NCBI GenBank assembly: GCA_963726755.1
Contig: CAVSDB010000001.1
Coordinates: 1,341,225-1,405,224, forward strand
Source of the DNA: an uncultured Actinomycetota bacterium
Lineage (GTDB): Bacteria; Actinomycetota; Actinomycetes; JAHEKZ01
Direction of reading: 5' to 3'
Length of the DNA stretch: 64,000 nt
The notes beneath the pieces are model-generated. The model saw only the letters and a list, made by a program, of their open reading frames with translations. It was not told where the DNA came from and made no database searches. The position numbers were made by a program, and so were the translations under genes. Each line of letters begins with the position of its first letter. Within the stretch, counting starts at the first letter, position 1. This document shows positions 784 through 55,025 of this stretch, piece by piece.

Positions 784-1437
784 ATGCACGGCTTCACCGA
801 AGTGGCCGTGCGGTTGCGCTCCCCGCGGTCGGCCGCGATAGCCGGCATTGCGTTCGGTTTGATCCTCGGAACCGTCATCGTCTTGCTTCGGACGTCGGTG
901 ACCCACTTCACTGACGATCCGTCGAATTGGCTCAATGCGCCCTCGGGTCGAGGAACCGTGACCTTGGCCATGAACCTCATTCCGTTCGCCGGGATTGCGT
1001 TCTTGTGGTTCATCGGCGTGGTTCGCACCCGGCTCGGTGACTTGGAGGACCGGCTGTTCGCCACGGTGTTCCTCGGGTCAGGACTGCTCTTCGTCGCGAC
1101 GCTGTTCGTCGCCGCCGCCGCCATCGGGAGTTTGTTGGTACTCAGTGCCCATGGTGAGGCCCCCAGCGCCGACACTCAGCGCTTCGTCGGAGCATTCGTC
1201 GGCACCCTCATGGGAGCTTTCGGTGCGCGAATGGCAGCGGTGTTCACGTTGACGGTGACGACTCTCGGCTGGCGCACCCGGTTGATTCCCCCTTGGTTGG
1301 TGACGCTGGGTTACGCCGTCGCGATCGCGCTGCTGTTGACCCCACCCGTCAGCGGATGGTCGCAATTGTTATTTCCCTGGCTGGGTGCTGCTCCTGAGTT
1401 GCCACCTGCTGTACGTCTCGCTGCGGGACGGCGATAA
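784..1437 (+). CDS. hypothetical polytopic membrane protein
   Basis: Track ORF 706..1437, trimmed to the internal Met (MHGFTEV) to clear the tRNA-like element. Several hydrophobic helices. Stop overlaps the next start (TAATG). Confidence 0.45.
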   Translation: MHGFTEVAVRLRSPRSAAIAGIAFGLILGTVIVLLRTSVTHFTDDPSNWLNAPSGRGTVTLAMNLIPFAGIAFLWFIGVVRTRLGDLEDRLFATVFLGSGLLFVATLFVAAAAIGSLLVLSAHGEAPSADTQRFVGAFVGTLMGAFGARMAAVFTLTVTTLGWRTRLIPPWLVTLGYAVAIALLLTPPVSGWSQLLFPWLGAAPELPPAVRLAAGRR

Positions 1438-2124
1438 TGCCAACCCCGTCGGCGGATACTGTGACGTCCGCCGAGAGCATGGTGCGCGGTGAGCGTCGAT
1501 GGCCAATGGCGCTCGCGGTCATCACCGTCGGAGTCCTCCAGCAACTGCTGCCCGAAGACTTCCGAACCGCGCCGTTCTTGTTCTACCTCTACCCGATCGT
1601 GCTGACTGGGTTTCTCATCGTGCTTGATGATCGGTGACCCAGGACGGATCGACCGCGACCGCCGATGGTTACGCATCACATCGGCCTCGCTGGTCGCATT
1701 CCTCACTTTTGGCACGGCCCTAGCCACGGTACGGCTGGTCCTCGGAATCGTCCGGAACGCCTCATTCGCCAGTGCAGGCCAACTGTTGACGATCGGCGCG
1801 ATCGTCTGGGTGACCAACGTCATCGCGTTCGCGCTCTGGTACTGGGACATGGATTCCGGCGGACCTGCTGCTCGGGCGATCGGCAGGACCGACGTGAGGC
1901 CGTCGTTCGTGTTTCCTGAAATGTCGCTGCCAGAACTGGTCGGCCCAGGCTGGTACCCACACTTCGTCGACTATCTGGCGCTGTCGTTCAACACCGGACT
2001 GGCCTTCAGCCCAACGGACGTTTCAGCGATCCGACGTTGGGCCAAGGTCCTCATGATTTTGGAGTCCATGATCTCCCTGACGCTCGCCGCCCTCGTCCTC
2101 GCGCGAGCCATCAACATCCTCTAA
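1437..2124 (+). pseudogene. conserved membrane protein (DUF1345-like), reading frame broken once near 1630
   Basis: Track ORFs 1437..1637 and 1624..2124 are the N- and C-terminal parts of one membrane protein in different frames. Confidence 0.4.
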
Positions 2125-2544
2125 ATCTCGTACGTGTCGTTCGAGTTCTGGCTTCACGTCGATCAACCGTCCGAGCAGGCCGTTGACGAAGCCCGGCGAC
2201 TCATCGGTGGACAAGTCTTTCGCGAGTTCGACTGCCTCATCGACGGCGACCGCATCGGGTACGTCGTCGGACCACAAGATCTCGTAGACCCCGATCCGCA
2301 AGACTGCGCGATCGACCGCAGGCATCCGCTCGAGCGGCCAGTCGACGGAGTGTTCTTGCAGCCAGACGTCGATCTCTGACTGATGCGCGACGACGCCCTC
2401 GACCAGTTCGATCGAGTAGGGGCTGACCACCGCATCACCGCGGCTCTGTCGCTGTTCGAGTACCTCAGTTGGTGTCCGACGGCGTTGGTCTGCCTCGAAG
2501 AGCACGTCCACCGCGCGCTTGCGGGCCTTGCTGCGTGCACCCAC
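2023..2544 (-). CDS. nusB: transcription antitermination factor NusB (with acidic C-terminal extension)
   Basis: Track ORF, 173 aa. N-terminal region KARKRAVDVLFEAD...PYSIELVEGV and position directly downstream of efp are typical for NusB. Confidence 0.8.
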   Translation of the reverse strand: MGARSKARKRAVDVLFEADQRRRTPTEVLEQRQSRGDAVVSPYSIELVEGVVAHQSEIDVWLQEHSVDWPLERMPAVDRAVLRIGVYEILWSDDVPDAVAVDEAVELAKDLSTDESPGFVNGLLGRLIDVKPELERHVRDLEDVDGSREDEGGERQGDHGLQNHEDLGPTSDR

Positions 2545-2546
2545 GG

Positions 2547-3107: not shown

Positions 3108-3140
3108 GTGCTGTCGTCTCCTGAGGTGTGGTCACGGGCG

Positions 3141-4253: not shown

Positions 4254-6309
<2,056 letters not shown>

Positions 6310-11828: not shown

Positions 11829-13474
11829 TCAGTACTGCGGCTTGAGCTCTGCCGTCGTCTTGGCGCCCCACACCGCGTTCGTCCACTGCGGGAAGTACGG
11901 CGGTGCGGAGAACTTCAACCGTGAGTCGTAGCCGTAGTCCTTGAGGTACCCGGTACCGCTGCTGGAGCCAGTACCGACGATGCCACGCCAACGCTGAGCG
12001 ATAGAGCCGCGGACTGACAGCGTTCCCATCTTGGCGCCATCGTCGTAGGACTGGACCCAGAAGCTGTGCTGCAGGGTCTGGATCGAGGCGTAGATCCAGA
12101 TGTCCGACGGCGACTTCAGGTTCGTGCCCCGAGCTGTTCACCGGGTGGGCGACGACCACCGAGTTGGCCGCCACCAGTCCAACCATGTCCGAACCGGTGG
12201 GGTTCGAACCCGATCGGCGTGCTGGCCAGTAGGAGGTCGTCGGTCACGATGATGTTGTTCTGCGCGGCCAGCGTGACCCGACCCTTCACAGTTCCCTCGA
12301 CGTAGAGGTTGCCGTTGCCGCAGTAGAACGTCGTCAGGTCGTTGGCGACGTCGCCAGCCATCGGCAGGCCATCACCGATCTGACCAGTCGTGCACTTAGA
12401 GGTCGTCGATGCGTTCTTGACGTAGACGACGCCCTCGTTCGGCACTGCCACTGTCTGCGGCCAGGCCGCGGACGGGTTACCGCAACCGGTGCCAACAACG
12501 GTGCCGGCGCTCTTGGTGCTCCAGACCGTCATGGTGCCGTTGCTGTTGAACTTGATCCGGGTGTCGCCGGTGTACTGGCAACCGGGGAAAGTGGAGAACT
12601 GGGCGCTGTTGTCGGGTAGGTAGAGCAGCGGGGCGTACTTCGCGGTGGTGCCGTTGAGGTTCGGCGTACCGCTTCCGCGCTTGCAGTTGTTGATGTTGTA
12701 CGGAGTGTTGGCGCACGTCGAGGCGGACGTCTCGTAGCCCTTCATGAACTTGACCGAGCCACCCATCAACGGCGTGTCGTTGAAGTGCACAGCTCCATCG
12801 AGTACGTCACCTGTGGCGAACTGGATTTCGACGCAGCCACGCGAAGAGTTCTGCCAGTAGTACTTGGCTTTCGTCGGTCCGCTCTTTCCGCAGGCGTCCG
12901 AAGGCGCACCCGAGGGGTAGGCCTGCTGGTTCGCCGGGTCGGCGTCCTCGAAGTCGGTGTAGTACAGGAAGTCAGTCGATCCACCACGTGACACCAGAAC
13001 CTGAATGGTGCGTGAGTGACCATTGACGCGACCGGTTGAGGTCACCCGGATCACGCCCTGGCTGAAGATGGTGCTGGGGTCGACGTCGTAGTGGAACGCT
13101 CCAGCTGCCGGGTTACCGGGCTGCAGATTCTGCCAGCCAACTGCCGTTGCCGTCGTCCAGCCGCAACTGTTCGTGCCGGCCTTCGGACCCTTAAGCGCGT
13201 TGTTGGTGCAGTCAACGGTCGTCCAGTACGAGTCGTTCTGGTTCAGTCGCGCGATGTAGTCGTCAATACCCGACTGCGCTGCGGCCAACGACGCGTTCCA
13301 GTCTTGGTCGGCGCGTGAACTGGTCTGCGCCTGCTGCGCAACCATGTACGCAGAGGTCATAAGCATGCCGAGAATCAGTGTGGCAGCCATCACCATGATG
13401 AGGGCGATGCCCTCTTCTGGGTGAGATGAACCCAGGCGGCGAGTGAAGAAACGGAACATGGTGACTCCTGTCAC
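11829..13474 (-). pseudogene. large pilus-associated protein (minor pilin/tip adhesin-like, PilX/PilY-type candidate); C-terminus split over 3 frames
   Basis: Track ORF 12116..13474 (452 aa, hydrophobic pseudopilin-like N-terminus GIALIMVMAATLILGML) continues in ORFs 11809..12186 and 11829..12029 in other frames. Confidence 0.45.
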
Positions 13475-14187: not shown

Positions 14188-15539
14188 CACAGAGTCACCA
14201 CCGAAAGTGCCGTTACGCCGGAGGTCGGGAGCAAGCTCGCCGTGGTTGGCCACGAACCCGACGGGCTCTTGCCGGTGACTTTGATCTGCCATTTACCGGC
14301 CGGAAGTGAGGCATTCAGAACACCCGAGGCGTTCGTCGTACCCACCGTGATCGGGTTTTCTGTCGTGCCACAGGTCGTCGTGGTCACCGGAGTGGCGGTG
14401 ACGACCGCATTCGGCACGGCGACACCGAGTGTGTTCTTCACCGTCAGCGCCATCGGGGCCAGACGAGTAGTCGTTGTCCCGGTTCCCGCTGGGGCGATGA
14501 TGATCGCTGGTGAACGTGTGCCGCCGGCCGTTGCTGGGTCGGACTGTGCGCATGAGCCGGCCCACAGGCTGTAGCCGTCGGTGAATGGCCACAGCGAGTT
14601 CACGGTTGTCGTCGCGCTGCTGGTCGTTACGACGCGAGTTCCGGTCGGCTGTAGCCCGGTGTTGGCAAGGGTCAAGGCTGGCCACGAAGCTGGTAGCGAG
14701 TATCCGCCCTCAGTGATGTACGTGACTGCCAGTGTCGCGGCCTTGTCGTAGTTAATGGTGACCTGCGACAGAGTTCCAGCGGTAACGACCACTGACTTAT
14801 CTGGTGTTTGGTCGCCATAGAAGTCCACGTAGCCCGGTTCGTTCATCGATGCCGTGTACGTACCGGGAGTGGACAGCGCGAACACCGCGCAACCGTCGAC
14901 GGCTGTGGTGTCGCTGAACGTGCCTGCGGGTCCAGTGATCGAGACCGTACGGTTCTTGCTCGGCAGGCCAGCTGCATCCAGGACCTTGACGCCGACGAAT
15001 GACAGCGTTGACGACAGCACACCCTTCGGTGGCGTCAGCACTGTGTTGGACGTCGACGGGAGGAACCGTGCCCATGTTGGGCCACGAAACCTCGACGTTC
15101 ACGGCAAGCGTTGGGTAGGTAATGGCTGCGCCACCGTCGCAACTGCTTTGACCGGTTCCGGCTGGCAGCCACTCGACATTGCGCTTGACCGTGTACGGAA
15201 TCGCCGTCCACCTTCAGGTCGGCACCGGCGCTCTGGCCAGGCAACGGATGTGGGTTCAGCACGAAGTTGGCGGCCGCCAACGCACCGGGCGCCGTCAACG
15301 ACGAGTTGAACTCATTGCGCGTGATTTCCAACTCGCGCGATGCGAGATTGGCCGCAGCTACCCGGTTCTTGTCCAGGCGCGTGGTCTTCATCGCGGCTGC
15401 CAAGCCCCATAACAATGGCGCTGGCGACGATCGAGAAAATCACCATCGCGACTACCAGCTCGATAAGCGTGAGTCCCCCCTCACCATCAAGCTGAGCACG
15501 ACGGCGAAAAGAGAGAAGATTCGGCCATGACCTCTGCAT
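14187..15539 (-). pseudogene. large pilin-like protein (FimT/PilX-like) with prepilin N-terminus; at least 3 frameshifts
   Basis: N-terminus in ORF 15312..15602 (GGLTLIELVVAMVIFSIVAS), middle in ORF 15035..15415, then a third frame (WTAIPYTVKRNVEWLPAGTGQSSCDGG...), and C-terminus in ORF 14187..15041. Traced by hand. Confidence 0.5.
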
Positions 15540-15590
15540 GGGCGTCTTATCGGCATCTGAAATAGCCGACTTGAACGGGGACGAGCAACG

Positions 15591-15624: not shown

Positions 15625-15663
15625 CAGTTGCATCTGATTCACCCTGGGTAGTACAATGGGTGA

Positions 15664-16077
15664 TCAGTTGTTCACGCAAACGCCGCCGGCAGCCTGGAGG
15701 CCACCGTCGTTGCTGTCGTAGATCCAGTTGGCCTGCGAACCAGGCTGCGCACCGGCGATACGAGTGATGGTCACGCAGTAAGACGAACCGATGGTCGAAA
15801 CGGCCACCGCTGCGTTGTTACCTGGCGAAAGCTTGACTGCAGCAGGAACCGCAGCCGGGTAGGTCTGAGTGTCAGTGAACGCAGTTTCCATCTCGTTGGC
15901 CACCGCGCGAGCGTCAGCCTTCATCGATGCGTCAACAGCCTTCTGACGCTGGTTCAAGAACACCGGGATAGCAATAGCAGCAAGAATACCGATGATGATA
16001 ACGACGACCAGGAGCTCGATGAGGGTGAAGCCTTCCTCATTCTCGTCCATGGCCTTACGGATGCGAGCGAGCATCAT
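15664..16077 (-). CDS. pilA: type IV major pilin PilA, copy 1
   Basis: Track ORF 15664..16128 trimmed to the MM start with GAAGGGA ribosome-binding site. MMLARIRKAMDENEEGFTLIELLVVVIIIGILAAIAIPVF is a canonical type IVa prepilin leader plus N-methyl-Phe helix. Confidence 0.85.
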   Translation of the reverse strand: MMLARIRKAMDENEEGFTLIELLVVVIIIGILAAIAIPVFLNQRQKAVDASMKADARAVANEMETAFTDTQTYPAAVPAAVKLSPGNNAAVAVSTIGSSYCVTITRIAGAQPGSQANWIYDSNDGGLQAAGGVCVNN

Positions 16078-16317
16078 TTGTCCCTTCAGGACGTAACGGT
16101 GAGCCGTACGGCGCTCGCCCTGGACCACCCCTAAGGGCTGACCGAGGTAGCTGGGCTAACCACATGGGTCCCCTGGCTTTGCGAACCCGCCTCACGACGG
16201 GAGTGCCTTGTCTGGCCGGTTGGCTCTTTACAAGTACTGTTTCGACCCCCCACATACCCGTCTTGAGCCACGATGATCACAGACTTCACCGGCGAGTTCC
16301 ACCGCTGACAACAAGCA

Positions 16318-16351
16318 GACTCGGGGCCACACCGTGTGGTGTGACCCCGAG
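16318..16351 (-). terminator. hairpin terminator downstream of pilA copy 2
   Basis: ACTCGGGGCCACACC/GGTGTGACCCCGAGT, paralogous to the copy-1 hairpin. Confidence 0.4.
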
Positions 16352-16395
16352 TCCTGCTAGTGATAATGCGATCAGATGATCTGGTGATCAGCCGA

Positions 16396-16809
16396 TCAGT
16401 TGTTCACGCAGACCCCGCCGGCAGCCTGGAGGCCACCGTCGTTGCTGTCGTAGATCCAGTTGGCCTGCGAACCAGGCTGCGCACCGGCGATACGAGTGAT
16501 GGTCACGCAGTAAGACGAACCGATCGTCGAAACGGCCACCACTGCCTTGTTACCTGGCGAAAGCTTGACCGCAGCAGGAACCGCAGCCGGGTAGGTCTGA
16601 GTGTCAGTGAACGCAGTTTCCATCTCGTTGGCCACCGCGCGAGCGTCAGCCTTCATCGATGCGTCAACAGCCTTCTGACGCTGGTTCAAGAACACCGGGA
16701 TAGCAATAGCAGCAAGAATACCGATGATGATAACGACGACCAGGAGCTCGATGAGGGTGAAGCCTTCCTCATTCTCGTCCATGGCCTTGCGGATGCGAGC
16801 GAGCATCAT
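16396..16809 (-). CDS. pilA: type IV major pilin PilA, copy 2 (one amino-acid difference from copy 1)
   Basis: Track ORF 16396..16860. Identical 154-aa translation except SPGNNAAVAV vs SPGNKAVVAV. Confidence 0.85.
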   Translation of the reverse strand: MMLARIRKAMDENEEGFTLIELLVVVIIIGILAAIAIPVFLNQRQKAVDASMKADARAVANEMETAFTDTQTYPAAVPAAVKLSPGNKAVVAVSTIGSSYCVTITRIAGAQPGSQANWIYDSNDGGLQAAGGVCVNN

Positions 16810-17270
16810 TTGTCCCTTCAGGACGTAACGGTGAGCCGTACGGCGCTCGCCCTGGACCACCCCTAAGGGCTGACCGAGGTAGCTGGGCTAACCACTGGGT
16901 CCCCTGGCTTTGCGAACCCGCCTCACGACGGGAGTGCCTTGTCTGGCCGGTTGGCTCTTTACAAGTACTGTTTCGACCCCCCACATACCCGTCTTGAGCC
17001 ACGATGATCACGACTTGGCATCACACCCAGACGGCCCAACGTCCAGTGGCGCCTTCAAGAGCCGGCGTGCTCTGCGCGCTCCTTGATCCCATGGAACGTC
17101 CCGCGAGCCATGACAGATCGGCGGGGATGATGGCCATGAGCTGCGCAGCGAGTTCGTGTGGGGATCCACCTCACGACGGTGAAGAAGGCAGTCCCGGCCC
17201 AAATGGCTTCGGGGCTGGTGTCGATGGTGATCGCAGGGTTAGTCGCGACCTGCGGACAGGCTTCCCCTGA

Positions 17271-17694
17271 CTAGCTCTCGATCATGCTTGGGCGAAACCT
17301 CCGACCTGACACTGCATCGACCTCGACACGCACAAAGACCGGCTTAGGGCCTCGTTGCCAGGCGATGACCGGCAGACTCAAAACTGTCAAGTATTTCGTG
17401 AACGTTCGTCAGGGAACGAGCTCGTCCCTTGAGCACGACGCTCCACGCCTCGCCGGATTCTTGGTCCACTCCGTCAACCTCGAAGGCGACGCGGTGCCCA
17501 TCTGCCGCGTTGAGTTTGGTCCCGAGCGCTGTTCGGAACATCACCGTGCCGTGGTCGACCAGATGGTTGACCGGGAAGATCTCTGGCTGCTCGTCCAAGA
17601 CCACTGCCAGCCGCCCCACTTGCGCACTTCGGACTAGATCCCAACAGGTGTTATCTCGAAGCACCTCGATCGCATCGGTTCCGTCTTGTTGCAT
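17271..17694 (-). pseudogene. pyridoxamine 5'-phosphate oxidase family / F420-dependent-like small enzyme; C-terminus frameshifted near 17345
   Basis: Track ORF 17344..17694 (116 aa PPOX-like). The expected C-terminus PVFVRVEVDAVSGRRFRPSMIES* is in another frame immediately downstream. Confidence 0.5.
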
Positions 17695-17805
17695 GTCTGA
17701 CCTCCCATCGACCGTTCACCGGTTCCACCTTGGGCCGAGCGGCGGTGCCTTACCCGGGCAAGAAGTCCCGATGTTTTGCTTTCGCCCCTCCCCTAGGGTG
17801 AATTC

Positions 17806-20078: not shown

Positions 20079-20172
20079 CGTCGTCCGTCAACCCCAATCG
20101 TCTTGGCAGTCGAACGATAGTGGCCTCTCAGACTATGACGCGACCGACGGACTATCGGCAATACTCCCGTCA

Positions 20173-21395: not shown

Positions 21396-21415
21396 GTCGT
21401 AACTCCCTTGGTGGC

Positions 21416-22472: not shown

Positions 22473-22542
22473 AGATGATGTCTTCGCCGCCCAGCGCGGC
22501 TCGGTGCTGACTCGAGAGTAGGACTCCTCGTTCGCCTCGGAC

Positions 22543-38112: not shown

Positions 38113-38844
38113 CTACAACCCCCGCCCGCGAGCTTGACTGGGAGTCGGCTCGGCGAGGAATGGGTTGCTCGCTCGCTCACGTCCGATCGTCGTCGCTTCT
38201 CCATGCCCCGGAAGCACCAACGTGTCGTCGGACAGTGGGAGCACCTTGCTCGCTAGTGACTGCAGCATCTGCTCGTGCGATCCACCGGGCAGATCGGTTC
38301 GCCCGATCGATCCCGCAAACAGCACATCACCGGACAACAAGGTCTGCGTCGGCTGCTGGTCCAGACCATTCGCACCGTCTGGCGCCCCGGGTAGCCGGAA
38401 CATCACCGACCCAGGGGTGTGTCCGGGCGCGTGGTCGACTTCGATCCGCAGACCGGCCATCTCTAATGGCTCTTCACCGATCAGGCGGACGTCGTCAGGC
38501 TCAACCCAGGTCAGTCGCCCGCCGAACATTGCCGCCGTCTCGGGGCTGATCCCCTTCATCGGGTCGGCGAGCAACTCGCGGTCCCCCGGGTGGATGTAGG
38601 CGGGCAAACCTCGGGCCGTCCCGACCGGGCACCACCGAGAACGTGTGATCAATGTGCCCGTGCGTCAACAACACCGCCACGGGCTCAAGGCGGTGCTCTC
38701 GAAGCAGGGCAGTCCACACCGTCGGCCACTTCGATACCGGGGTCGACCACGATGCACTGTTCCCCAGCAGCTGGGGCCACGACGTAGACGTTGGTCCCGA
38801 ACGCCACCGAGGGGAAGCCAGCGATCAGCACGTGGATCAGCCTC
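38113..38844 (-). pseudogene. MBL-fold metallo-hydrolase (hydroxyacylglutathione hydrolase-like); 2 frameshifts
   Basis: C-terminus in ORF 38113..38652, middle (LLTHGHIDHTFS) in ORF 38501..38719, N-terminus (GTG with AGGAGG; LIAGFPSVAFGTNVYVVAP) at ~38720-38844. Confidence 0.6.
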
Positions 38845-39021: not shown

Positions 39022-39801
39022 GTGGCGACCAAGAAGAAGCAGCGCAAGGCAGCGGCCCGTGCGAACTACGAGGCCTATCTCACACGCAAGGCAGAGCAGG
39101 CGCGCCGTCGTAAGCGCAGGGACATCATCATCGGCGTGGTTGTCGCGGTGGCGATCGTCGTTGGGTTCGGAGTCTGGACCTCGGTCCAGGGTGACGACAC
39201 CCCAGCGCCCGCGGCCGAGCCGGCTGCCAGCCCTTCCGCAACTCCGTCCGCATCCACGTCGCCCAAGAGCTATGACAAACCCGAACAAGTGCTCAACGAC
39301 AAGACTCCTGCCACGGCCACCCTCAAAACCAACCAGGGCACCATCACGATCGACCTTGATGTGAAGAACGCCCCGAAGAACAGCAACTCCATCGCGTTCC
39401 TGGCCGGAGAGGGCTACTTCGACAACACGTCGTGCCACCGCCTCACGACCAGTGATTCACTGTCGGTCCTGCAGTGCGGTGACCCAACGGGTACCGGTAG
39501 CGGCGGCCCCGGCTACACCGTCGCTGACGAAAACCTGCCGAAGGCGGGCAAGAACAACTACCCAGCCGGGACGGTCGCGATGGCCGAGCCGCAGGGCGGC
39601 CAAGCTGGTAGCCAGTTCTTCTTGGTCTACGAGGACTCGACGCTTCCGCCTGACTACACGATCGTTGGTCACATCGATTCGGGACTCGACATCTTGCGGC
39701 AAGTCGCCCAAGGTGGAGTCGCTGCTGGGAGCCCCAACGTCGACGACGGTGCCCCCGCGACGCCAGTCACAATCAAGTCCGTCACGATTAACCAGAGTTG
39801 A
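39022..39801 (+). CDS. ppiB: membrane-anchored cyclophilin-type peptidyl-prolyl cis-trans isomerase
   Basis: Track ORF, 259 aa. N-terminal transmembrane helix then cyclophilin domain (HRLTTSDSLSVLQCGDPTGTGSGGPGYT...FFLVYED). Confidence 0.8.
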   Translation: MATKKKQRKAAARANYEAYLTRKAEQARRRKRRDIIIGVVVAVAIVVGFGVWTSVQGDDTPAPAAEPAASPSATPSASTSPKSYDKPEQVLNDKTPATATLKTNQGTITIDLDVKNAPKNSNSIAFLAGEGYFDNTSCHRLTTSDSLSVLQCGDPTGTGSGGPGYTVADENLPKAGKNNYPAGTVAMAEPQGGQAGSQFFLVYEDSTLPPDYTIVGHIDSGLDILRQVAQGGVAAGSPNVDDGAPATPVTIKSVTINQS

Positions 39802-41099
39802 TGAACACCATGAGCCAGACCCCGCATCCCACCCCGCCGCGCCCGACACCACCGAGTGGCCCGGCGGTGCCATCGACACAGTCGTGGGGTCGGGTTGACG
39901 ACCAGGGGGCAGTCTTCGTTCGTACTGCGGACGGCGAATGAAGGTTGGCGAATGGCTCGCCGGCGATCCAGCGGCAGGACTGGCGTACTACCAGCGTCGC
40001 TACGCCGCACTCGCGGTCGATGTCGACCTCCTTGAGCATCGACTCACCGACGCAGGATTGGCGCCTGACGACGCCATGGTCAAAATCGGGAAGATCCGCT
40101 CGCAGGTCGACGAACCCCACTGCGTCGGCGATCTACAAGCACTGCGGACGCGGCTGGACGCCTTGGTCGTCATTGTCGATCAACGTCGGGCCGATCTCGA
40201 CGCCGAGAGGGTAGCCAGTCGAGAGCGGGCGAAAGCGTCGCGATACGCCCTCGTCGATGAGGCCGAAAAGCTTGGCTGATTCGACGCAGTGGAAGTCCGG
40301 CGGCGAACGCTTCCGCGCGATCGTCGAGGAGTGGAAGCACCTCCCCCACGTCGAGCGATCAGTTGAGCAAGACCTGTGGAAGCGACTGAGCCACAGTCGC
40401 GGAATCTTTGAGAAGCGTCGCCGGGCATGGTTCGCCGAGCGCGACAGCAAACGTCACGAGGCCGAAGCCAGTAAAGAAAAGCTCATCAAAGAGGCTGAGG
40501 CATTGGCCGACAGCAAAGACTGGGGTCCGACGACAACCGCCTTCCGCTCTCTGATGACCAAGTGGAAAGCCGCCGGTCATGCCCCCCGAGGCGTCGATGA
40601 CGAGTTGTGGACTCGGTTCAAAGCCGCACAAGACAAGTTCTTCGCAGCGCGCACGGAGGCGTTCACCGAACGCGACGCTCACCTCGATGAGAACCTCAAA
40701 GCCAAACAGGCACTGCTAACCGAAGCCGAGGCGTTGCTTCCGGTCACTGACCCCAAAGCTGCTCGTTCATCGCTACGGACGATTCAAGATAAGTGGGCTG
40801 CGATCGGACACGTCCCGCGCAACGACCGCGATCGGATCGAAAAGCGACTGCAAAAGGTTGAGCAGGAAGTCCGCAACTTCGAGGAGAGCCGCTGGCGTCG
40901 CAGCAACCCCGAAGCGCGAGCACGAGCTACTGCAACGGTCGAACAGCTGACCAAATCGATCGCCAAACTGGAAAAGGAACTGGCGGCCGCCGAACAATCC
41001 GGCAACCGCGACGCAGCTACGAAAGCACGCGAGGCCATCACGGCCCGGCAGGAGTGGCTGGCGCAGGCTCAGCAGTCGCTAGAAGAGTTCAGCGTCTGA
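39801..41099 (+). pseudogene. DUF349 repeat protein; 2 frameshifts near 39940 and 40270
   Basis: Three consecutive frames: MNTMSQ...WGRVDDQGAVFVRTADGE, then ORF 39938..40279, then ORF 40257..41099 with repeated DUF349-like W/K motifs. ATG overlaps the ppiB stop. Confidence 0.55.
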
Positions 41100-44592: not shown

Positions 44593-46355
44593 TCATGCCT
44601 CCTTTGCCGAGGCGCGACGTCTGCTCGCGACGGTTGTCTGTTCGGTGCGTGGTCGCGCTCCGAGCCGTTCAGGCGACAACCCCGACCAGGGGCTTCCGCT
44701 GTTGAAGAACTTGGTGCGCGACAGCAGGCTGATCACCGGCTTGGTGAAGAAGAACACCACTACCAAGTCGATCGCGGTCGTCAATCCCAAAGTGAACGCG
44801 AAGCCTCGGACGCTACCCACCGACAAGAAGTACAAGACGGCAGATGCGATCAGCGAGATGGCGTCCGCGGTGACGATCGTTCGCCTGGCTCGTACCCAGC
44901 CAGACTCCAAGGCCACGCGCAGCGTTCTTCCCTCGCGCACTTCGTCACGGATTCGCTCGAAGTAGACGATGAAGGAGTCGGCCGTAATACCGATCGCGAC
45001 AATCAAACCGGCGACACCGGCGAGCGTCAGCGTGAATCCCATCGTCTGACCGAGCAGGATTACCGTGCCGTAGACCAATGCACCGGCGACCACCAGGCTG
45101 AGGATCGCGACGAAGGCCAGCGCGCGATAGTAGACCAGCAGGTAGATCACCACGAGGATCAGCCCCAATGCGCCGGCGATTAGGCCAGCTTGAAGTTGAT
45201 CGGCCCCCAGCGTCGGCGAGATGGTTTGCCGTTCGACGATGGTGAAGTTCAGTGGCAGTGCACCGAACTTCAAGACGTTGGCTAGGTCAGTGGCCTGCTG
45301 CTGCGTAAACGACCCGGTAATTTGCGCTTGCCCACCGAGGATTGGTCCGTTGTTCAGACCGGGCGCCGAGACCACCAACCCGTCCAGCACGATGGCGAAT
45401 CGGTTCAGTGGATCCTGCAGACTCGCCAGCCTGGTGGTGGTGTCCGCGAACGCCTTTGTTCCGTCGGCGTCAAAGTTGAGGTTAACTGCCCAGCTCGCGC
45501 CGTTCTGCGGAATGCCCGCAGTGGCGCTGTCGATGTTCGCGCCATCAACCTCGACCGGAGCCAGCAGGTACTTCTCGGCGCCATCGTCGCTGCACGCGAT
45601 CGCCGGTTCGGTCTTCTTGAACGTCTGTCCGATGTTCTTCTGCTTGGGATCAGAACAGTCGAGTTGAGCGAACTGCTGCTGCAGCGCTGGGCTGACGTCG
45701 GACGGTGAAGTCGGCGTCGTCGTCGGTGCAGTGGACGTCGCGGTAGGTGTCGGGGTTGCCGAAGGAGTTGGCGTCTGCGAGCCACCCTGACCGTTGCCAC
45801 CCTGGCCATTGCCACTCGTTGCACTGACTCGAGGCAGCACACCACCGTTGTTCTGACCGTTGCCGATTCTGCTCATGAACCGTTGCCCCCGCCGTTGCCT
45901 TGCCCACCGTTGTTGCCGGTCTTCGATGGAGTAGGTGACGGGCTCGGAGTGGGAGTCGCGGTTCCTGGCGCTGCGGCGAGGACCGGTCGGAACGTCAGGC
46001 TGGCGGTCTGGCCAAGTTGTGAAACCAACTCGTCCTGTCCGACATCTGGTACCGAAACCACGATCACGGCCTGCGATCCGCTGCCCTGAGAAGTGACGGA
46101 CGCTTCGGCCACACCACTGCCGTTCACGCGCTGCTCGATGATCGAGACGGCCTGGTTGATCGCCTCAGTAGTGATCTGGCCTTCTTCGCCGGGAGCCGGA
46201 CTGGGCTGCAAGGTGACCGTGGTGCCGCCCTTGAGGTCCAGGCCGAGTTTCGGCGTGGTGTTGCCAGTGATCACGATCCACGCGCCAAGCGCCACCATGA
46301 CGATCAACAGCACCAGTAACGACCTGCCGGGTCGTCCTGAAGTCGATGAAGCCAC
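44593..46355 (-). pseudogene. secD: protein translocase subunit SecD; one frameshift in the Gly/Asn-rich linker near 45875
   Basis: N-terminus in ORF 45873..46355 (LGLDLKGGTTVTLQP). Rest in ORF 44593..45876. Confidence 0.85.
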
Positions 46356-46785: not shown

Positions 46786-47832
46786 CTACTCAGTTGAGTC
46801 GGGGTCGAACAGCGTACCTGGCATACCGGGGACGGCCGGTGGCGTGAGACCAAGGTGAGCCCAGGCGGCCGGGGTGGCCACCCTTCCCCGCGGGGTTCGC
46901 GCTAAGAGTCCACGGCGAACCAGAAACGGTTCGGCAACTTCCTCGACGGTCTCGCGCTCTTCACCCACCGAGACCGCAAGGGTGCTTACACCAACCGGGC
47001 CACCACCGAACCGTCGAACCAGTGCTTCGAGTACCCCCCGGTCAAGGCGGTCCAACCCGATCGCGTCGACCTCGTATACCTCAAGGGCTGCGCAGGCCGT
47101 TTCGTAGTCGACCGCACCGGTGCCACGCACCTCGGCGAAGTCCCGCACTCGACGCAACAACCGGTTGGCCACTCGCGGTGTACCGCGCGACCGCCCGGCA
47201 ATCTCGGTCGCCCCCTCAGGACGCAGATCGACCCCGAGCAACGCAGCCGACCGAGTGAGCACCTGCTCGAGTTCGTCGGGTTCGTAGAAGTCGAGGTGGC
47301 CAGTAAAACCGAACCGGTCACGCAACGGTCCTGGTAGTAGTCCGGCACGCGTCGTTGCTCCCACCAAGGTGAACGGTGGTAATTCCAACGGGATCGCAGC
47401 AGCGCCGGGACCTTTGCCCACCACGACGTCGACACGAAAGTCTTCCATCGCGAGGTACAGCATCTCTTCGGCTGGTCGAGCCATGCGATGGATCTCGTCG
47501 AGGAACAGCACCTCGCCTTCGACCAGCGATGACAACAAGGCCGCGAGATCACCTGCGTGCTGAATGGCCGGACCACTGGTGATTCGAATCGGCTGCTCAA
47601 GCTCAGCAGCGATGATCATGGCCAACGTCGTCTTGCCGAGGCCAGGCGGCCCTGACATCAGAACGTGGTCGGGGGCTCCCCCGCGGGCCTTGGCAGCTTG
47701 CAATACGAGCGCGATTTGCTCGCGGACCCTTGCCTGTCCCACGAACTCGGACAGTCGCTTCGGACGCAGCGCTGCCTCGATCGCGCGGTCGTCACCGGTC
47801 TGCGTGGGGTCGAGCAGATGGTCCTCGGTCAT
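46786..47832 (-). CDS. ruvB: Holliday junction ATP-dependent DNA helicase RuvB
   Basis: Track ORF, 348 aa. [11 protein letters not shown] Walker A. Confidence 0.95.
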
Positions 47833-48447
47833 CGCGGACCCAGCAGTCGCAACGCGGCTCGAAGCAGCGATCCGGTGTCGTCGACGTTGATCCCCGCTTC
47901 ACCACGGGCGACCTCCGACGACACTTGAGACACCGCGTCGTCGGCTTCGCGCACGTTCCAACCCAACCCAATGAGTGCGGCGTGGACATCGGCCTGCCAC
48001 GAACCGGTCGGGGCCGCAGCGGAGGAACCAGTCGGACCGGCAGCGATGCCGGTGAGCCGATCCTTGAGCTCTAGGACGATGCGCTGCGCGCCCTTACGTC
48101 CGATCCCCGGCACCTTGGTCAGCGCGGCAAGATCCTCAGTGGCCACGATCGTGCGCAATGCGTCCGGCGAATGGACCGCCAACATTTGTTGCGCCAACCT
48201 CGGACCAATGCCGCTGACGGTTTGCACGAGGTCGAACACCTGACGCTCGTCGTCATCGGCGAAGCCGTAGAGGGTCAGCGAGTCTTCGCGAACCACCAGG
48301 GACGTGGCCAGCATCGCCGCCTGCCCCACGCGCAACCCGGCGCTGGTCGTTGGGCGTGCACTGCACGGTCAGACCTACGCCACCAACCTCGATCACCGCC
48401 GAGTCCCCGCTGACTGACGCCACTCTGCCGTGGACCGACGAGATCAC
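47829..48447 (-). pseudogene. ruvA: Holliday junction DNA helicase RuvA; one frameshift near 48330
   Basis: N-terminus ([33 protein letters not shown]) lies in the frame of ORF 48253..48960. Rest in ORF 47829..48335. GTG start overlaps the ruvC stop (GTGA). Confidence 0.8.
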
Positions 48448-48960
48448 CGCCGAGCTCCCGCTGCTGCGGCAGCCAATCGATCCATCGCGGCACCACGCCA
48501 GACGTGACAAATGGCCAACGCCAGCGCGTCTGCTGCGTCGGCCGGTTTCGGCACCTCCGATAACCGGAGCAGCCTGGCAACCATCGCCCCAACCTGTGCC
48601 TTGTCGGCCCTGACCGTGTCCGGTCACAGCGGCCTTGACTTCGCTCGGCGTGTGAAGCGCCACCGGCAAGCCTCGACGGGTGGCAGCAGCGATCACCACG
48701 CCACTGACCTGCGCAACCCCCATCACCGTGCGGACGTTGTGCTGACTGAAGACTCGCTCCACGGCCACCGCGTCGGGGCGATGCTCCTCGAGCCACCGAT
48801 CGACCTCGACTTCGATCGCCACCAGCCGTTCACCCAGCGGGGCATCGGTGGCAGTGCGGACGACCGAGACCGCGACTAGCTGGAGGGAACGACCGGGAGC
48901 GCCATCCACGATGCCCAACCCACAGCGAGTCAGCCCGGGATCGATCCCGAGTACGCGCAC
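48444..48960 (-). pseudogene. ruvC: crossover junction endodeoxyribonuclease RuvC; one frameshift near 48590
   Basis: ORF 48253..48960 begins [18 protein letters not shown]...[10 protein letters not shown]. The C-terminus [38 protein letters not shown] is in another frame. Confidence 0.8.
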
Positions 48961-49057: not shown

Positions 49058-51728
49058 CTAGTCCTCGAGCAGGGAGCGCAAGACGAACGGCAAGATCCCA
49101 CCGTGGCGGTAGTAGTCGGCTTCCCCGGGAGTATCGATTCGGACGACCCCGTCGAACTGAATCGAAGTCCCGTCGGGGCGCGTTGCAATTACCGACACGG
49201 CGCGTGGAGTGACGTCATCGTTGAGTTCAGTGATGCCGCTGACGTCGAACACCTCGTCCCCGGTTAGTCCCAACGTCGCAGCGCTCTGGCCTTGCGGGAA
49301 CTGAAGGGGCAACACCCCCATGCCAATCAGGTTGCTGCGGTGAATGCGCTCATACGACTCAGCGATGACCACGCGCACGCCGAGTAGCGCCGTCCCCTTT
49401 GCGGCCCAGTCTCGAGACGAACCTGATCCGTACTCCTTGCCGACCAGGACGACGAGGGGCACTTCCTGCGATCGGTAGTGCTCGGCGGCATCGAAGATCG
49501 GGACAACCGGTTGCGCGGGGTCAAGCAAGTCCTTGGTAAAGCCGCCCTCGACACCCGGCACCATCGCGTTGCGAAGCCGGATGTTCGCGAAGGTGCCGCG
49601 AATCATCACCTCGTGGTTGCCGCGTCGAGACCCGTATGAGTTGAAGTCTGAACGTGCGACCCCGTGATCTGTCAGGAACTTCCCAGCCGGGCTGTCCGTC
49701 TTGATCGCTCCGGCCGGCGAGATGTGGTCGGTCGTGACGGAGTCGCCAAGCACTGCCAGTACGCGTGCACCTTGCACATCGGTCACTGGGGACGGTTGTT
49801 GTTGCATGCCGTCGAAGTACGGGGGCTTACGAACGTACGTCGACGCGTCATCCCACGCGAAGATGTCACCGGTCGGCGTCGACAATTCCTGCCAACGTTG
49901 GTCACCAGCAAACACGTCTGCGTACTCGCGCGTGAACGTCTCGCTAGCGATGGTTTGCGATACGACGTCCTGGATCTCTTGAGCTGTCGGCCAGATATCG
50001 GAGAGCATCACCGGAGTTCCATCTCCGTCGACGCCCAGTGGCTCGGTGAGCAGATCCAGATCCATCGTCCCCGCAAGGGCGTACGCCACAACAAGCGGCG
50101 GGGAGGCGAGGTAGTTCATCTTGACCTCGGGGTTGATCCGACCCTCGAAGTTTCGGTTACCCGACAGCACCGAAACCACGGTCACGTCGTGCTCGTTCAC
50201 GGCGGCCGAAACCTCGGGCAGCAGCGGCCCGGAGTTTCCGATGCACGTCGTACAGCCATACCCGACGAGGTTGAAGCCCAGCTTGTCGAGGTACGGGGTC
50301 AGACCGGCTCGGTCGTAGTAGTCCATAACGACCTTCGAGCCGGGCGCAAGGGTGGTCTTGACCCACGGCTTGCGAGTCAGTCCCTTCTCGACGGCATTCT
50401 TCGCAACCAACGCAGCGCCGATCATGACCGAGGGGTTCGACGTGTTCGTGCACGAGGTGATGGCCGCGATCGCCACCGCCCCGTGCTCGAGTTGAACGTC
50501 TTGACCGCCGACGTTGACCGCGACCGCCGCTCGATCGGCGCCCGGTCCTGCGAAGTCGGGAAGCGCCTGCTCAAACATGGTCTTGGCCTGACGCAGCGGA
50601 ACCCTGTCCTGCGGTCGCTTCGGCCCGGCCAACGACGCCTCGATCGATCCGAGGTCCAGTTCGAGGCGCTCTGAGTAGTCAGGCTCTGCGTCCGGGTCGA
50701 GCCACAGCCCCTGGGTTTTGGCATAGGCCTCGACGAGCGCAACCTGCTCGACCGAACGTCCGGTCAGCGACAGGTAGTCCAACGTTCCCTGATCGACCGG
50801 GAAGATCGCCACCGTCGAGCCGTATTCCGGGCTCATATTTCCGATCGTTGCACGGTTCGCGAGCGGCACCGCTGAAACGCCGCTGCCGTAGAACTCCACA
50901 AACTTTCCGACGACCCCGTGGTGGCGCAACATCTCGGTGATGGTCAGAACCAGGTCGGTGGCGGTCGTGCCCTCGGGCAACTCCCCCGTCAACTTCACAC
51001 CGACGACGCGAGGCACCAGCATGCTCACGGGTTGACCGAGCATCGCGGCCTCTGCCTCGATCCCTCCGACACCCCAGCCGAGCACTCCCAAGCCGTTGAC
51101 CATCGTGGTGTGGGAGTCAGTGCCGACGACAGTGTCGGGGTACGCCTGCCCGCCTCGATCCATCACGACGCGTGCCAAGTGCTCGATGTTTACCTGATGC
51201 ACGATGCCGGTACCGGGAGGCACCACCCGGAACTCCGCAAACGCGGTCTGCCCCCAGCGCAGCAACTGATAGCGCTCAATGTTTCGCTGGTACTCCAACT
51301 CAACATTGCGTTCGAAGGAATCTGGCGCACCGAAGAAATCCGCGATCACTGAATGATCGATAACAAGCTCTGCAGGAGCCAGTGGGTTGATCCGCGAAGG
51401 ATCACCGCCGAGATCGCGTACCGCCTCGCGCATTGTCGCCAGGTCGACCACAGCAGGTACTCCGGTGAAGTCCTGCATGATGACGCGGGCGGGCGTGAAT
51501 TGAATCTCGGTGTTTGGCTCAGCCTGCGACTGCCATTGCCCAAGCGCGTGGACGTGGTCGCCGGTGACGTTGGCGCCGTCTTCGGTCCGTAAGTTGGTTC
51601 TCGAGCAGCACCTTCAAACTCATCGGGAGTCGATCGGAGCCGGGCACGGCGTCAATCCGGAAGATCTCGTAGGTGCTACCGCCAACCGACAGGTCCGCAC
51701 GAGCACCAAAACTGTTCGCCTGTGCCAT
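49058..51728 (-). pseudogene. acnA: aconitate hydratase A; frameshift(s) between ~51480 and 51600 near the N-terminus
   Basis: N-terminus in ORF 51519..51728 ([28 protein letters not shown]...LKVLLENQL). Remaining ~806 aa in ORF 49058..51478. Confidence 0.9.
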
Positions 51729-51771
51729 CAGAGCCTCCTACCGACCGGCGTGAGCCTACTCAAAGGATGAT

Positions 51772-51791: not shown

Positions 51792-51807
51792 CACGAGGGA
51801 ATGGAAT

Positions 51808-53001
51808 TCACCCAGGACCCTGCTCGCCCATCGGCGACAGCAGCGCCACGCATTCGACGTGGTGGGTCATCGGGAACAGATCGAACGCCCGCAACTGCTG
51901 GAGTCCATACCCGAGGTCGGCGGCAGTTGCGACGTCGCGAGCCAGCGCGGCCGGGTCACACGCGACATAACTGATCGCGCGCGGTTTCATCCGAGCAAGA
52001 GCGGTCAGCACGCGACGACCCGCGCCGGCTCGCGGAGGGTCGAGCACCACCAGGTCGCAGTGACGCAGCGGCGTCCGCTGCAAGAACCGCTCGACCGAGA
52101 CGCCTTGGATGCGCACCGTGACGTCGTCGGCCAAGTTGACCTCGGCATCGTCGACGGCCACTCGGTGCGCTTCGACGACGTCGACGCGTCCGCCGACACC
52201 GAGTCGCTCGCGCGAGCGGTCCCGCGAACAGTCCAACACCGGCATACAGATCCAACGCATGCTCGCCCGCGCGCGGCTGCAGTTGATCCATGACGGCGCC
52301 GACCAGAGCGTCTGCGGCCGCCGGATGCACCTGCCAAAAGCCCCCGCCGCTCACTCGCCAGTCGCGACCGGCTGCCCGCTCCACGGTGCCAGGCGTGGCG
52401 GAACCGTCGACCGACACCTGCACGTCGCCATTGGTGGTTGCAGCCGTGACGTCGACCGTTGACGCTCCGGGGAATTGTTCGGTGGTGACTTCGGACTGCT
52501 GAATCAGCGGATGGGAGATGACGCAGCGATCGATCGCAACGACGTCGTGCGAGCGATGACGTCGCAATCCGGGGTGACCAGACTCGTCAACCGCGAACGA
52601 CATCCGGGTGCGCCAACCGAGCCCAGATTCGTCAGCGGTGAGTGGTTCGACGACGACGTCACGATCAACGCCAGCCAGTCGACGAAGTTGCTCAGCAACA
52701 ACGCTGGCCTTTAGCTCACGCTGAAACGCCAGGTCGACATGCTGGAAGTCGCAACCGCCACATTCGCCGGCGTATTGGCACGGAGCAGTGACACGCTCGG
52801 GTGCGGCCTTCTCCACCGAACGAACGTCGGCGCGCAGGTAGCGGCCCTTCGGACCGATGTCGGTGACCTACCGCGAGCTACGTCCTCGCCCGGTAGCCCG
52901 TGGCGGACGAACACCACTTGACCCTCGAGGCGACCGACGAAGTGCCCGCCGTGTGCAACTGGACCGACCGTGAGCCTGATGACATCGCCGACATCGGGCA
53001 C
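51808..53001 (-). pseudogene. TRAM-domain class I SAM-dependent RNA (uracil-5-)-methyltransferase (RlmD/TrmA family); 2 frameshifts
   Basis: TRAM N-terminus in ORF 52711..53220 (GDVIRLTVGPVAHGGHFVGRLEGQVVFVRHGLPGEDV), middle in ORF 51956..52816, C-terminus in ORF 51808..52260 (VLDPPRAG...YVACDPAALARD). Confidence 0.7.
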
Positions 53002-53003
53002 GG

Positions 53004-55025
53004 TTAGTTTTCCATCTCCTCGGCGACCGTACGCTCGGCTTCTTCTGGCGTCGGCTCCCCTCGGCGCACTGCACCAGGAGCGAAGTTCTCCGGCCGTGAC
53101 TCCAGTCCCTGGCTCGACCGCAACTGGTACGGCACCGAAACGACGACGACGCCGGGCGTGAGCCGCAGTCGAGTCTTCAACCGGAGCGCGCTTTGGTTGT
53201 GCAGCAGCGTCTCCCACCAACGGCCAACCACATACTCGGGTACGTAGACGTCGACGATGTCGCGCGGGCTGTTCTCCCGCTTGGTCTTTACGTAGTCGAC
53301 GATCGGTCGCGTGACTTCACGGAACGGCGAGTCCAAGACCTTCAGCGGAACCGGAACCTTTGCCGCTTCCCACTCGGCCAGCAGCGCATCGGTCTCTACG
53401 GGATCGACGCGAACGGTCAGTGCCTCAAGCGACGCAGGGCGAGACGCTCTCGCATACGCCAGGGCACGCAGTGCTGGCTTGTGCAGTTTGGAGACCAACA
53501 CGACGGCGTGAATCCTCGACGGCAACATCTCGACGGAGGTGTCTGCCAGCAGTTCGGCTGACACCGACGCATAGTGACGTCTGATCGCCTTCATCAACAC
53601 GAAAAGTGCAGCCATCGCCAAGATCGCCAAGTAGGCACCGTGCGTGAACTTCGTCAGCAGCACGATGATGAGCACAGTTCCCGTGAGCACCAGGCCAATG
53701 GAGTTGATGACACGGGAGCGCCTCATCTGCCGACGGACTGCCGGGTCTTGCTCAGTCGACAGCAGCCGGGTCCAGTGGCGCACCATTCCGGTCTGACTCA
53801 TCGTGAACGACACAAAGACGCCGACGATGTACAACTGAATCAACTTGGAGACGTCGGCATCGAAGATGTAGATGAGGAAGATCGCCGTCGAAGCCAGCGC
53901 GATGATGCCGTTGCTGAAGGCCAGTCGATCCCCGCGGGTGTGCAACTGGCGCGGCAAGTAGCCGTCCCTTGCCAGGATCGAACCGAGTACCGGGAAACCG
54001 TTGAACGCCGTGTTAGCTGCCAGCACCAAGATGAGCGCAGTCACCGTCGCGACGATGACCGCCAAGACCGGCACAGTTGCTGAACACCGTTTCGGCGATC
54101 TGCGAGATGACCGTCTTCTGCTCCTCGCCGGGCGGCAATCCGATCAGGTCCGAGTTCTTCTCGGCCACCTTCACGCCCGTGTACATGGCCAGCCAGGTGA
54201 TCGAGGCGAACATCGCCATCGAGATCACACCGAGCAGCAACAGGGTCGTCGCCGCGTTACGTGATTTTGGCTTCTGGAACGCGGGTACGCCGTTGCTGAT
54301 CGCCTCGACACCGGTGAGCGCGGTAGTACCAGATGAGAAGGCCCGCGCAATCAGGTAGAGCACTGCGAACCCAGCGACCGAGTTCTCCGCGACCAGATGC
54401 CAGTTCGCACTCTCGGCGACTAGTTGATCGCCCATCGCGATCCGCACTAGCGCCCAACCGACCATGAAGAAGATGGAGAACATGAAGGCATACGTTGGGA
54501 TCGCGAAGCGCAGTTCCAGACTCGCGCACGCCGCGCAGATTCATCAGCGTGATGATGACGATCAGCGCGATCGCCACGGCGACGCTGTGGTCGATCACCG
54601 GAGCGAAACGCGGAGCCGATGTTGTCGACGGCTGCTGCGATGGACACCGCCACCGTCATCACGTAGTCGACGAGAAGCGCGCTAGCGACGACGACCCCAG
54701 CGTTGGGACCAAGGTTGACGGTTGCGACCTCGTAGTCGCCACCACCACTGGGGTACGCGTGCACATTTTGCCGGTAAGAAGCGACGACGACGAAGAACAC
54801 GAGCACGACGCCAGCCGCGACCCACGGCGTATAACTCAAGAAGGCAGCGCCACCGATGGAGAGGACGACCAGGATCTCCTGTGTCGCATACGCGTTGGAC
54901 GATAGAGCGTCGCTGGCGAAGACCGGCAACGCAATTCTCTTGGGCAGCAGAGTCTCGCCAAGCTTGGCGCTCGACTGTGGACGCCCTACCAGTGCACGCT
55001 TGAATAAGGACGTCACATTGGCCAC
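53004..55025 (-). pseudogene. APC-family amino acid permease with large C-terminal cytoplasmic domain; 2 frameshifts
   Basis: N-terminus in ORF 54447..55025, middle in ORF 54013..54483, C-terminus in ORF 53004..54074. Consecutive transmembrane segments throughout. Confidence 0.65.

Follow-up and report, generated by a model that had tools for sequence, protein, structure and literature searches.

Pilus, signalling and housekeeping genes with broken frames

The window, a stretch of 64,000 nucleotides from a contig of an uncultured actinobacterium, carries a pilus locus with signalling genes as well as metabolic, translation, recombination and membrane genes. Frameshift-aware alignment to homologues locates 39 frame breaks in 19 of these genes, spanning positions 1626 to 54603; the preliminary description of this DNA had counted at least 35, in line with this result. 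Homologous proteins from 164 related loci, together with about 500 database proteins, were compared with the window by a frameshift-aware dynamic programme, and a break is a frame change that is consistent among homologues. Positions are accurate to a few bases given close relatives, and to tens of bases for the breaks at about 22650 and 22940 and for that in secD. The affected genes and their breaks are listed below.

1440-2121, plus strand, DUF1345-like membrane protein: extra base at about 1626; frames read directly, with a homologous open reading frame (L011) spanning the repaired join
11832-13460, minus strand, large pilus-associated protein: extra bases at about 12136 and 12219; supported by 3-4 of 4 homologues
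14190-15540, minus strand, pilin-like protein with an N-terminal methylation motif: extra bases at about 15052, 15197 and 15413; 3-5 of 5 homologues agree
17274-17694, minus strand, Pyridox_ox_2 (PPOX-like) protein: extra base at about 17383; frames read directly
17797-19426, plus strand, GAF-GAF-HisKA_3-HATPase sensor kinase: missing base at 18006; extra bases at 18177, 18223, 18238, 19152 and 19353
19439-20078, minus strand, NarL/LuxR-type response regulator: extra base at 19973
20173-21395, minus strand, pilC: extra T at 21091 and extra G at 21025; supported by 6 of 6 homologues
21416-23180, minus strand, pilT with an acidic N-terminal extension: extra bases at 22049, 22376, about 22650 and about 22940; missing base at 22497
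23312-24977, minus strand, pilB: extra base at about 23562; tblastn matches split over two frames
28121-28975, minus strand, aroE (shikimate dehydrogenase): extra bases at about 28609 and 28822; tblastn in three frames and the dynamic programme
36849-38107, minus strand, hisS: extra bases at about 37570 and 37812; supported by 6 of 6 homologues
38116-38830, minus strand, metallo-beta-lactamase-fold hydrolase: extra bases at about 38631 (3-5 of 5 homologues) and 38710 (5 of 5)
39800-41096, plus strand, DUF349 protein: a base is missing at about 39940, and an AAAA run at about 40267 has one too many; supported by 5 of 5 homologues
44596-46355, minus strand, secD: one missing base within 45876-45990, a low-complexity linker
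47832-48446, minus strand, ruvA: extra base at about 48348; dynamic programme with database homologues
48447-48960, minus strand, ruvC: extra base at about 48612; same event from four proteins (P0253, P0254, P0255 and P0257)
49061-51728, minus strand, acn (aconitase): extra base at about 51592; two related loci (L161 and L162, 77-84% amino-acid identity) concur
51811-53010, minus strand, TRAM/tRNA(U5)-methyltransferase-like protein (trmA-like): extra base at about 52210 and missing base at about 52868; the same two loci concur, with DNA alignment
53007-55037, minus strand, APC-family permease: extra bases at 54075, 54508 and 54603; 6 of 6 relatives (83-88% identity) agree

All 39 lesions are single-base events, 34 with an extra base and 5 with a missing one. 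Deleting the 34 bases and adding the 5 restores one open frame of normal length in each of the 19 genes; the 19 repaired genes contain no nonsense codons, and none of the 39 events is a multi-base or larger lesion. Profile matches to Pfam families run continuously over the former breaks. In the pilus and signalling genes these include GAF_2 in the kinase (2-136 of 136), Response_reg in the regulator (1-110 of 111, with a BLASTP alignment unbroken over the join), T2SSE in pilB (3-370 of 370) and N_methyl in the 482-codon frame of the pilin-like protein. Elsewhere they comprise Pyridox_ox_2 (3-140 of 140), Shikimate_dh_N in aroE (1-83 of 83), tRNA-synt_His in hisS (1-306 of 308), a continuous Lactamase_B match in the hydrolase, RuvA_N (2-61 of 61), RuvC (1-148 of 148), Aconitase (4-463 of 463), TRAM and tRNA_U5-meth_tr in the trmA-like gene, and AA_permease_2 (16-404 of 427). 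DUF349 repeats are detected once that gene is repaired, and secD, the N-terminal domain of which lies in a different frame from the remainder, then shows SecD_1st, the P1 head and SecD_SecF_C. The DUF1345 match is weak, scoring 21 bits where the cut-off is 31.8, and the large pilus-associated protein, a single open frame of 592 codons after repair, matches no Pfam family. Other database proteins labelled RuvC are themselves frameshifted read-throughs.

Several genes are hit repeatedly. Sixteen homologues give the same six events in the kinase, for which at least five had been proposed, and no in-frame stops; residue-level alignment places three of its extra bases within 62 nucleotides, around the conserved VFGNLYL motif. 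In the response regulator, VVGESG and SALEATRR lie one base apart. The three events in the ATPase body of pilT are backed by 6 of 6 homologues and by DNA alignments with two related loci (L081 and L082); a long open reading frame of L081 aligns end to end (79% identity), and repair yields a frame of 629 codons. What had been described as a separate acidic protein is the N-terminal extension of this pilT, and the permease has three breaks rather than the two first assigned to it, each visible in DNA alignments as one extra base. DNA alignment likewise reveals an extra A in acn, and residue-level alignment of pilB was made to relatives of 78-85% identity.

In the public record, 19 of roughly 60 genes of the window (about 30%) are split, including the window copies of the housekeeping genes hisS, secD, aroE, acn, ruvA and ruvC. 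Intact genes comprise nusB, efp, pepQ, aroQ/B/K/C, pilM, pilD, alaS, aspS, relA, secF, ruvB and all of 55.1 to 64 kb; efp, the aro genes, pilM, pilD, alaS, aspS and relA, earlier named as undamaged neighbours, do read through without breaks. Amino-acid similarity to relatives is alike in broken and intact genes (identity to one related locus, L001, is 64% for hisS, 63% for alaS and 66% for aspS).

Direction, context and clustering of the lesions

The lesions are strongly biased towards insertion (34 versus 5, about 87% with an extra base; binomial P = 2.4 × 10−6). It had been suggested to check whether the breaks sit at homopolymers, and they do not: the longest run within 10 nucleotides averages 2.72 both at breaks and in the background, none of the 39 breaks has a run of 5 or more bases nearby, and the 84 runs of that length in the window are all in frame. 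The breaks are therefore not ordinary homopolymer-length errors, the kind typical of ONT, PacBio, 454 and Ion Torrent. Several inserted bases differ from both neighbouring bases in DNA alignments. Insertion bias without homopolymer association is the opposite of slippage mutations and is at odds with the natural indel spectrum.

The breaks are also clustered. Counts per 4-kb bin are 1, 0, 0, 5, 8, 8, 0, 2, 0, 5, 1, 1, 3, 5, 0 and 0, with a variance-to-mean ratio of 3.18 compared with 0.94 in simulations, none of which reached the observed value (P < 10−4). Three blocks have densities of 1.2-2.0 breaks per kb; elsewhere the density is 0-0.15 per kb, and more than 40 kb is almost clean. The blocks follow position, regardless of gene function.

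pilC in a related strain

An independent comparison comes from a 1,785-bp contig (L163; k141_3510124 in the ENA metagenome assembly ERZ27248970), the k141_ prefix of which suggests a MEGAHIT short-read assembly. It aligns to window positions 19989-21765 with 93.2% DNA identity, as a relative of a different strain, and covers 2 of the 39 sites. The contig encodes an intact PilC of 406 amino acids (P0248) that is 98.3% identical to the product of the repaired window gene. Within the coding sequence the alignment has exactly two gap columns, the extra T at 21091 and the extra G at 21025 of the window. Differences between the two genes are 12 synonymous and 3 nonsynonymous upstream of the breaks; downstream, the codon differences are 54 synonymous and 3 nonsynonymous, with 6, 0 and 53 differences at the first, second and third codon positions, respectively (53 of 59 at the third). 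The repaired frame of pilC, the one gene so tested, is thus under purifying selection upstream as well as downstream of the breaks, and strongly so downstream.

Origin of the breaks and its consequences

From these sequence comparisons, we consider the frame breaks to be most probably consensus errors in the deposited assembly rather than mutations of the organism (probability about 0.9). The preliminary description had also judged assembly indels likelier than decay, arguing that real decay was unlikely because essential genes are affected. That judgement gains from the exclusively single-base lesions, the lack of stops after repair and the selection on pilC, and further from the intact pilC of the related strain, the insertion bias and the indifference of the blocks to function. 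In three stretches of the window, single-base errors would then have entered the consensus at 1.2-2 per kb, an extra base in about 87% of cases, and because each error shifts the reading frame, gene callers would have cut a single real gene into anything from two to seven pieces. The genes themselves would be intact and functional in the cell. The blocks may stem from low read depth, from patches left unpolished or from a consensus built over mixed strains. The 37 lesions outside pilC are probably errors as well. Judged by size alone, the contig (1.5 Mb) is most likely a long-read metagenome assembly. Public protein collections hold eleven fragments of the broken genes as well as the intact relA and aspS, all from one contig of 1,516,276 bp.

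Frameshift fragmentation of genomes from long-read metagenome assemblies is well documented, with a severity linked to low coverage; it has been measured by IDEEL and corrected by proovframe, Kastor and frameshift-aware DIAMOND/MEGAN (PMC8103633, PMC13087279, PMC12007338, 10.1101/2021.08.23.457338). The window resembles such assemblies in that single-base indels split conserved genes, essential ones included, fragments have entered protein databases, some parts of the assembly are hit harder than others, and the contig is of great length. However, the errors described for long-read consensus sequences mainly concern homopolymer length, and in G+C-rich genomes most of them take the form of homopolymer deletions (PMC8574707, PMC8812927, PMC9262707), whereas those of the window are 87% insertions with none at a long homopolymer. 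This signature is atypical for long-read error and counts against assembly error as the explanation.

Genuine, ongoing gene decay, in a lineage undergoing reductive evolution like Mycobacterium leprae, is very improbable. The breaks do exist in the deposited record, and they affect an entire pilus locus. As in M. leprae, many genes of an actinobacterial chromosome are disrupted and a gene can bear several lesions; the kinase has 6 and pilT has 5, which is how dead genes look. Pseudogenes of recently host-restricted bacteria such as M. leprae mix frameshifts, nonsense codons and deletions, evolve under relaxed selection and spare essential genes. By contrast, the window has neither nonsense codons nor deletions of that kind, pilC remains under selection, and essential hisS, secD and aroE are broken. 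Because about 3.3% of random substitutions in the 23.9 kb of affected genes would yield a stop, real decay with 39 indels should also have left stops. Bacterial genomes have a deletional bias, to which the excess of insertions and its detachment from homopolymers run contrary; moreover, the breaks group by position rather than function, and pilC is intact in a 93%-identical relative.

Less probable still is that the insertions are real and extremely recent, arising in a mutator clone with an insertion-prone polymerase or through damage or amplification artefacts of the template DNA before sequencing. Recency would account for the kept codon-level conservation and the absence of stops, and local hypermutation could give blocks. 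However, a cell with two frameshifts in hisS and with secD, aroE, acn, ruvA and ruvC broken would be inviable, and such a genotype therefore could not dominate a population. Mismatch-repair mutators produce indels in homopolymers, a pattern not seen here, and no known process would insert single bases at random, 2 per kb, over blocks several kb long. We give very little credence to the notion that the extra bases are real, whether decay is just setting in through a replication or repair defect that favours insertions, or translation in the lineage copes with +1 shifts, or corrects them, at many sites unrelated to one another.

Programmed recoding, in which the ribosome would shift by +1 past each extra base and make full-length proteins from the sequence as it stands, would fit the shared direction of correction in 34 of 39 events and recalls prfB in having an extra DNA base relative to the protein, but is effectively refuted by the lack of a conserved shift site. 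In frameshifting of the prfB type, a gene has a single conserved site where a slippery codon adjoins a stop, and homologues share that site; the window instead has 34 unrelated extra-base sites that homologues, including the 93%-identical pilC, lack. No motif or k-mer is enriched at the sites after multiple-test correction (best P = 0.006 over 256 tests), no stop directly follows in the frame being read (median distance, 20-46 codons), and three kinase events fall within 62 nucleotides.

As an assembly artefact, the finding is of practical rather than biological value. Its blocked, insertion-biased and homopolymer-free signature may help to diagnose a fault in an assembly pipeline. Were the bases real, they would be a remarkable example of insertional decay on a massive scale and of very recent date, against which the evidence is strong. 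The lineage is poorly sampled, the closest AlaS in the reference genomes searched being 64% identical, and its annotation, completeness estimates, pseudogene counts and metabolic reconstruction would be misled by the sequence as deposited.

Identification and repair of the frame breaks

The window, with a G+C content of 62%, is an actinobacterial chromosome segment that carries a type IV pilus cluster, aroE-mltG-ruvX-alaS, aspS-hisS, relA, secDF and, in the usual order, nusB-efp-pepQ-aroQBKC; ruvCAB followed by acn, a trmA-like gene, an APC-family permease, trkA and further genes lie toward its right. Among 185,579 species-representative genomes scanned, the closest AlaS is only 64% identical, and nanopore MAGs from soil are frequent among the nearest relatives (PMC12313526). 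ARAGORN predicted a tRNA-Leu(CAA) just 76 nt long at 657–732 (+) and a tRNA-Phe(GAA) at 35311–35383 (−); the latter lies within the coding sequence of aspS, in the same orientation, and is probably a false positive.

Frames were called by homology, since at this G+C content noise prevented frame calling with either a GC3 frame plot or a 3-periodic Markov model of coding sequence. In tblastn searches with ORFs of related loci, single homologues matched two or three window frames in pilB, aroE, hisS, the metallo-beta-lactamase-fold (MBL) hydrolase, DUF349 and secD. We defined breaks as events consistent among homologues (at most eight per gene) in a protein-to-DNA aligner that permits frame changes, written for the purpose. 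A search for APC permease homologues, followed by two contig look-ups, yielded the right-hand relatives (contigs L161 and L162; synteny from 49 to 64 kb); a chimeric kinase, APC and trmA protein query returned APC matches only and led to these contigs. Homologues of RuvC/RuvA and of the GAF histidine kinase were taken from database proteins. The Pyridox_ox_2 (PPOX) protein, response regulator, DUF1345 and secD linker had no good homologues, and their breaks were read from the three-frame translation; all four were confirmed after repair by BLASTP or Pfam. X-masked frame translations served for Pfam searches of reference DNA containing stops. Frame-aware alignment and direct reading together identified 39 breaks in 19 genes, between positions 1626 and 54603; the preliminary description, which had reported at least 35, was right in its gene list and counts to within three events. 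One pilC event was placed at 21082 by protein alignment and at 21091 by DNA alignment. Fine-mapping of extra bases from protein alignments is thus unreliable, and base-level claims are made only where aligned DNA of close relatives exists.

Deleting 34 bases and inserting 5 gave every affected gene an uninterrupted reading frame of normal length (542 codons for the kinase, 442 for hisS, 602 for secD, 892 for acn and 682 for the APC permease), with no in-frame stops left in any of the 19 genes. Pfam domains then match end to end over the former breaks.

Pfam matches over former breaks after repair (Pfam positions)
GAF_2, 2–136 of 136
tRNA-synt_His, 1–306 of 308
RuvC, 1–148 of 148
T2SSE, 3–370 of 370
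AA_permease_2, 16–404 of 427

In repaired PilT (21416–23180, −) the same ORF encodes an N-terminal acidic extension, about 200 amino acids long, and what had been taken for a separate acidic protein is this extension. The same long ORF occurs in a metagenome contig (L081, 3599–5206), 79% identical end to end.

Character and distribution of the lesions

An extra base is present at 34 breaks and a base is missing at 5 (binomial P = 2.4 × 10−6). The longest run within 10 nt has a mean length of 2.72 both at breaks and at random positions, no break lies near a homopolymer run of at least 5 bases, and all 84 such runs in the window are in frame; the breaks do not, therefore, sit at homopolymers, a location that had been proposed as a check. 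We found no k-mer or GATC enrichment at the lesions and no stop codon directly after them. Alignments with close-relative DNA show one extra base per site, which at several sites differs from both neighbours (C at 54508, T at 54075, A at 51592 and G at 52210). Many sites fit the idea that the consensus had taken in both SNP alleles; this fit was dropped as evidence, because the aligner always puts the skipped base between codons and the fit is therefore not a test.

Breaks are strongly clustered (1, 0, 0, 5, 8, 8, 0, 2, 0, 5, 1, 1, 3, 5, 0 and 0 per 4-kb bin), with a variance-to-mean ratio of 3.18 compared with 0.94 in simulations, none of which reached the observed value (P < 10−4). Densities are 1.8 per kb at 12.0–23.7 kb, 2.0 at 37.4–40.4 kb and 1.2 at 48.2–54.7 kb, and 0–0.15 per kb outside these three blocks; the kinase GAF domain alone has 3 extra bases inside 62 nt. 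The most error-dense block also contains a tandem duplication (15662–17011, period 731–732 nt) that could be real or an assembly artefact, with two pilA genes that are 98–100% identical, including the upstream DNA:
15664..16128 (−), pilA, 154 aa
16396..16860 (−), pilA, 154 aa

Constraint on the broken genes

The window pilC fragment clusters at 90% identity with a full-length PilC (P0248, 406 aa), encoded on a 1785-bp contig (L163; ENA ERZ27248970, k141_3510124) whose name suggests a MEGAHIT short-read assembly. This contig, from a relative and not the same strain, is 93.2% identical to window positions 19989–21765 and spans 2 of the 39 sites. The only gaps in the pilC coding sequence are the extra T at 21091 and the extra G at 21025 of the window, and the repaired PilC is 98.3% identical to P0248. 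Downstream of the breaks there are 54 synonymous and 3 nonsynonymous codon differences (6, 0 and 53 nucleotide differences at codon positions 1, 2 and 3), and translation of the unrepaired gene would end at codon 117; the repaired frame is therefore the one preserved by selection. Broken genes have diverged no more from relatives than intact genes: identity to the related locus L001 is 64% for hisS (broken), and 63% and 66% for alaS and aspS (intact).

In the spacer between pilC and the response regulator (20085–20147), the window is without five bases present in L163, at four places; these noncoding gaps could be natural variation or more consensus errors. A scaffold from a second metagenome (L164; ENA ERZ28653468 scaffold_1700506, 1032 bp) is 98.6% identical to 277 nt at the hisS 3′ end (36785–37061), indicating that the species is present in other public samples; the overlap spans no break and the remainder of the scaffold is unrelated. 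A 1318-aa chimera of repaired proteins retrieved no same-species sequences, only distant multi-domain proteins, and none of the intact neighbouring genes, PPIase, ruvB and trkA, was matched by exact look-up.

Genuine gene decay is very improbable given the selection still seen, the essential genes among those broken, the bias toward insertions and the lack of stops. About 3.3% of random substitutions in the 23.9 kb of affected genes would create a stop, so that decay long enough for 39 indels should have left several. Very recent real insertions, slightly less probable again, would be lethal in combination, and we know of no mechanism for them. Programmed +1 recoding is highly implausible, as no site is common to the breaks and homologues show no such recoding.

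Probable consensus errors in the deposited record

Thirteen window ORFs occur verbatim in public protein collections, all from one NCBI/ENA contig; 11 are fragments of broken genes (P0121, P0243, P0245, P0246, P0247, P0249 and P0400–P0404) and the others are the intact relA (P0241) and aspS (P0242). The breaks were thus already present at deposition, and the public occurrence of these fragments rules out synthetic corruption of the window.

We consider it about 90% probable that the frame breaks are consensus errors in the assembly rather than part of the organism's biology, because the lesions are single-base only, affect essential genes and leave codon-level constraint in place, because a near relative has pilC intact, and because their block-wise distribution is independent of gene function. 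Their spectrum is also opposite to that of natural indels, which favour homopolymer slippage and deletions. Repair, selection on pilC and the involvement of essential genes support the preliminary description in preferring assembly indels to pseudogenisation. The length of the deposited contig (1,516,276 bp), which is from an uncultured soil-type actinobacterium, is suggestive of a long-read origin. MAGs built from long reads are well known to carry frameshift errors, particularly where coverage is low (PMC8103633, PMC13087279, PMC12007338, proovframe preprint). In G+C-rich genomes, the consensus errors published for ONT and PacBio are mainly deletions in homopolymers (PMC8574707, PMC8812927, PMC9262707), whereas the window lesions are insertions outside homopolymers, grouped in blocks; candidate sources of such block-wise errors are low depth, patches left unpolished or a mixed-strain consensus.

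Among 50%-identity cluster representatives with a RuvC match, many are read-throughs from RuvC into RuvA, 285–381 aa long, with Arg-rich out-of-frame stretches (P0251, P0299, P0323, P0332, P0340 and P0378), indicating that the same type of frameshift artefact occurs in other public assemblies. Long database proteins among P0405–P0436 join HisS and AspS domains (about 1025 aa), HisS and MBL (P0406, P0413) or HisS and RelA (P0405), and could have arisen by natural fusion or as artefacts of read-through between adjacent genes. In practical terms, for the organism studied here, roughly one in three window genes is mis-annotated in the public record.
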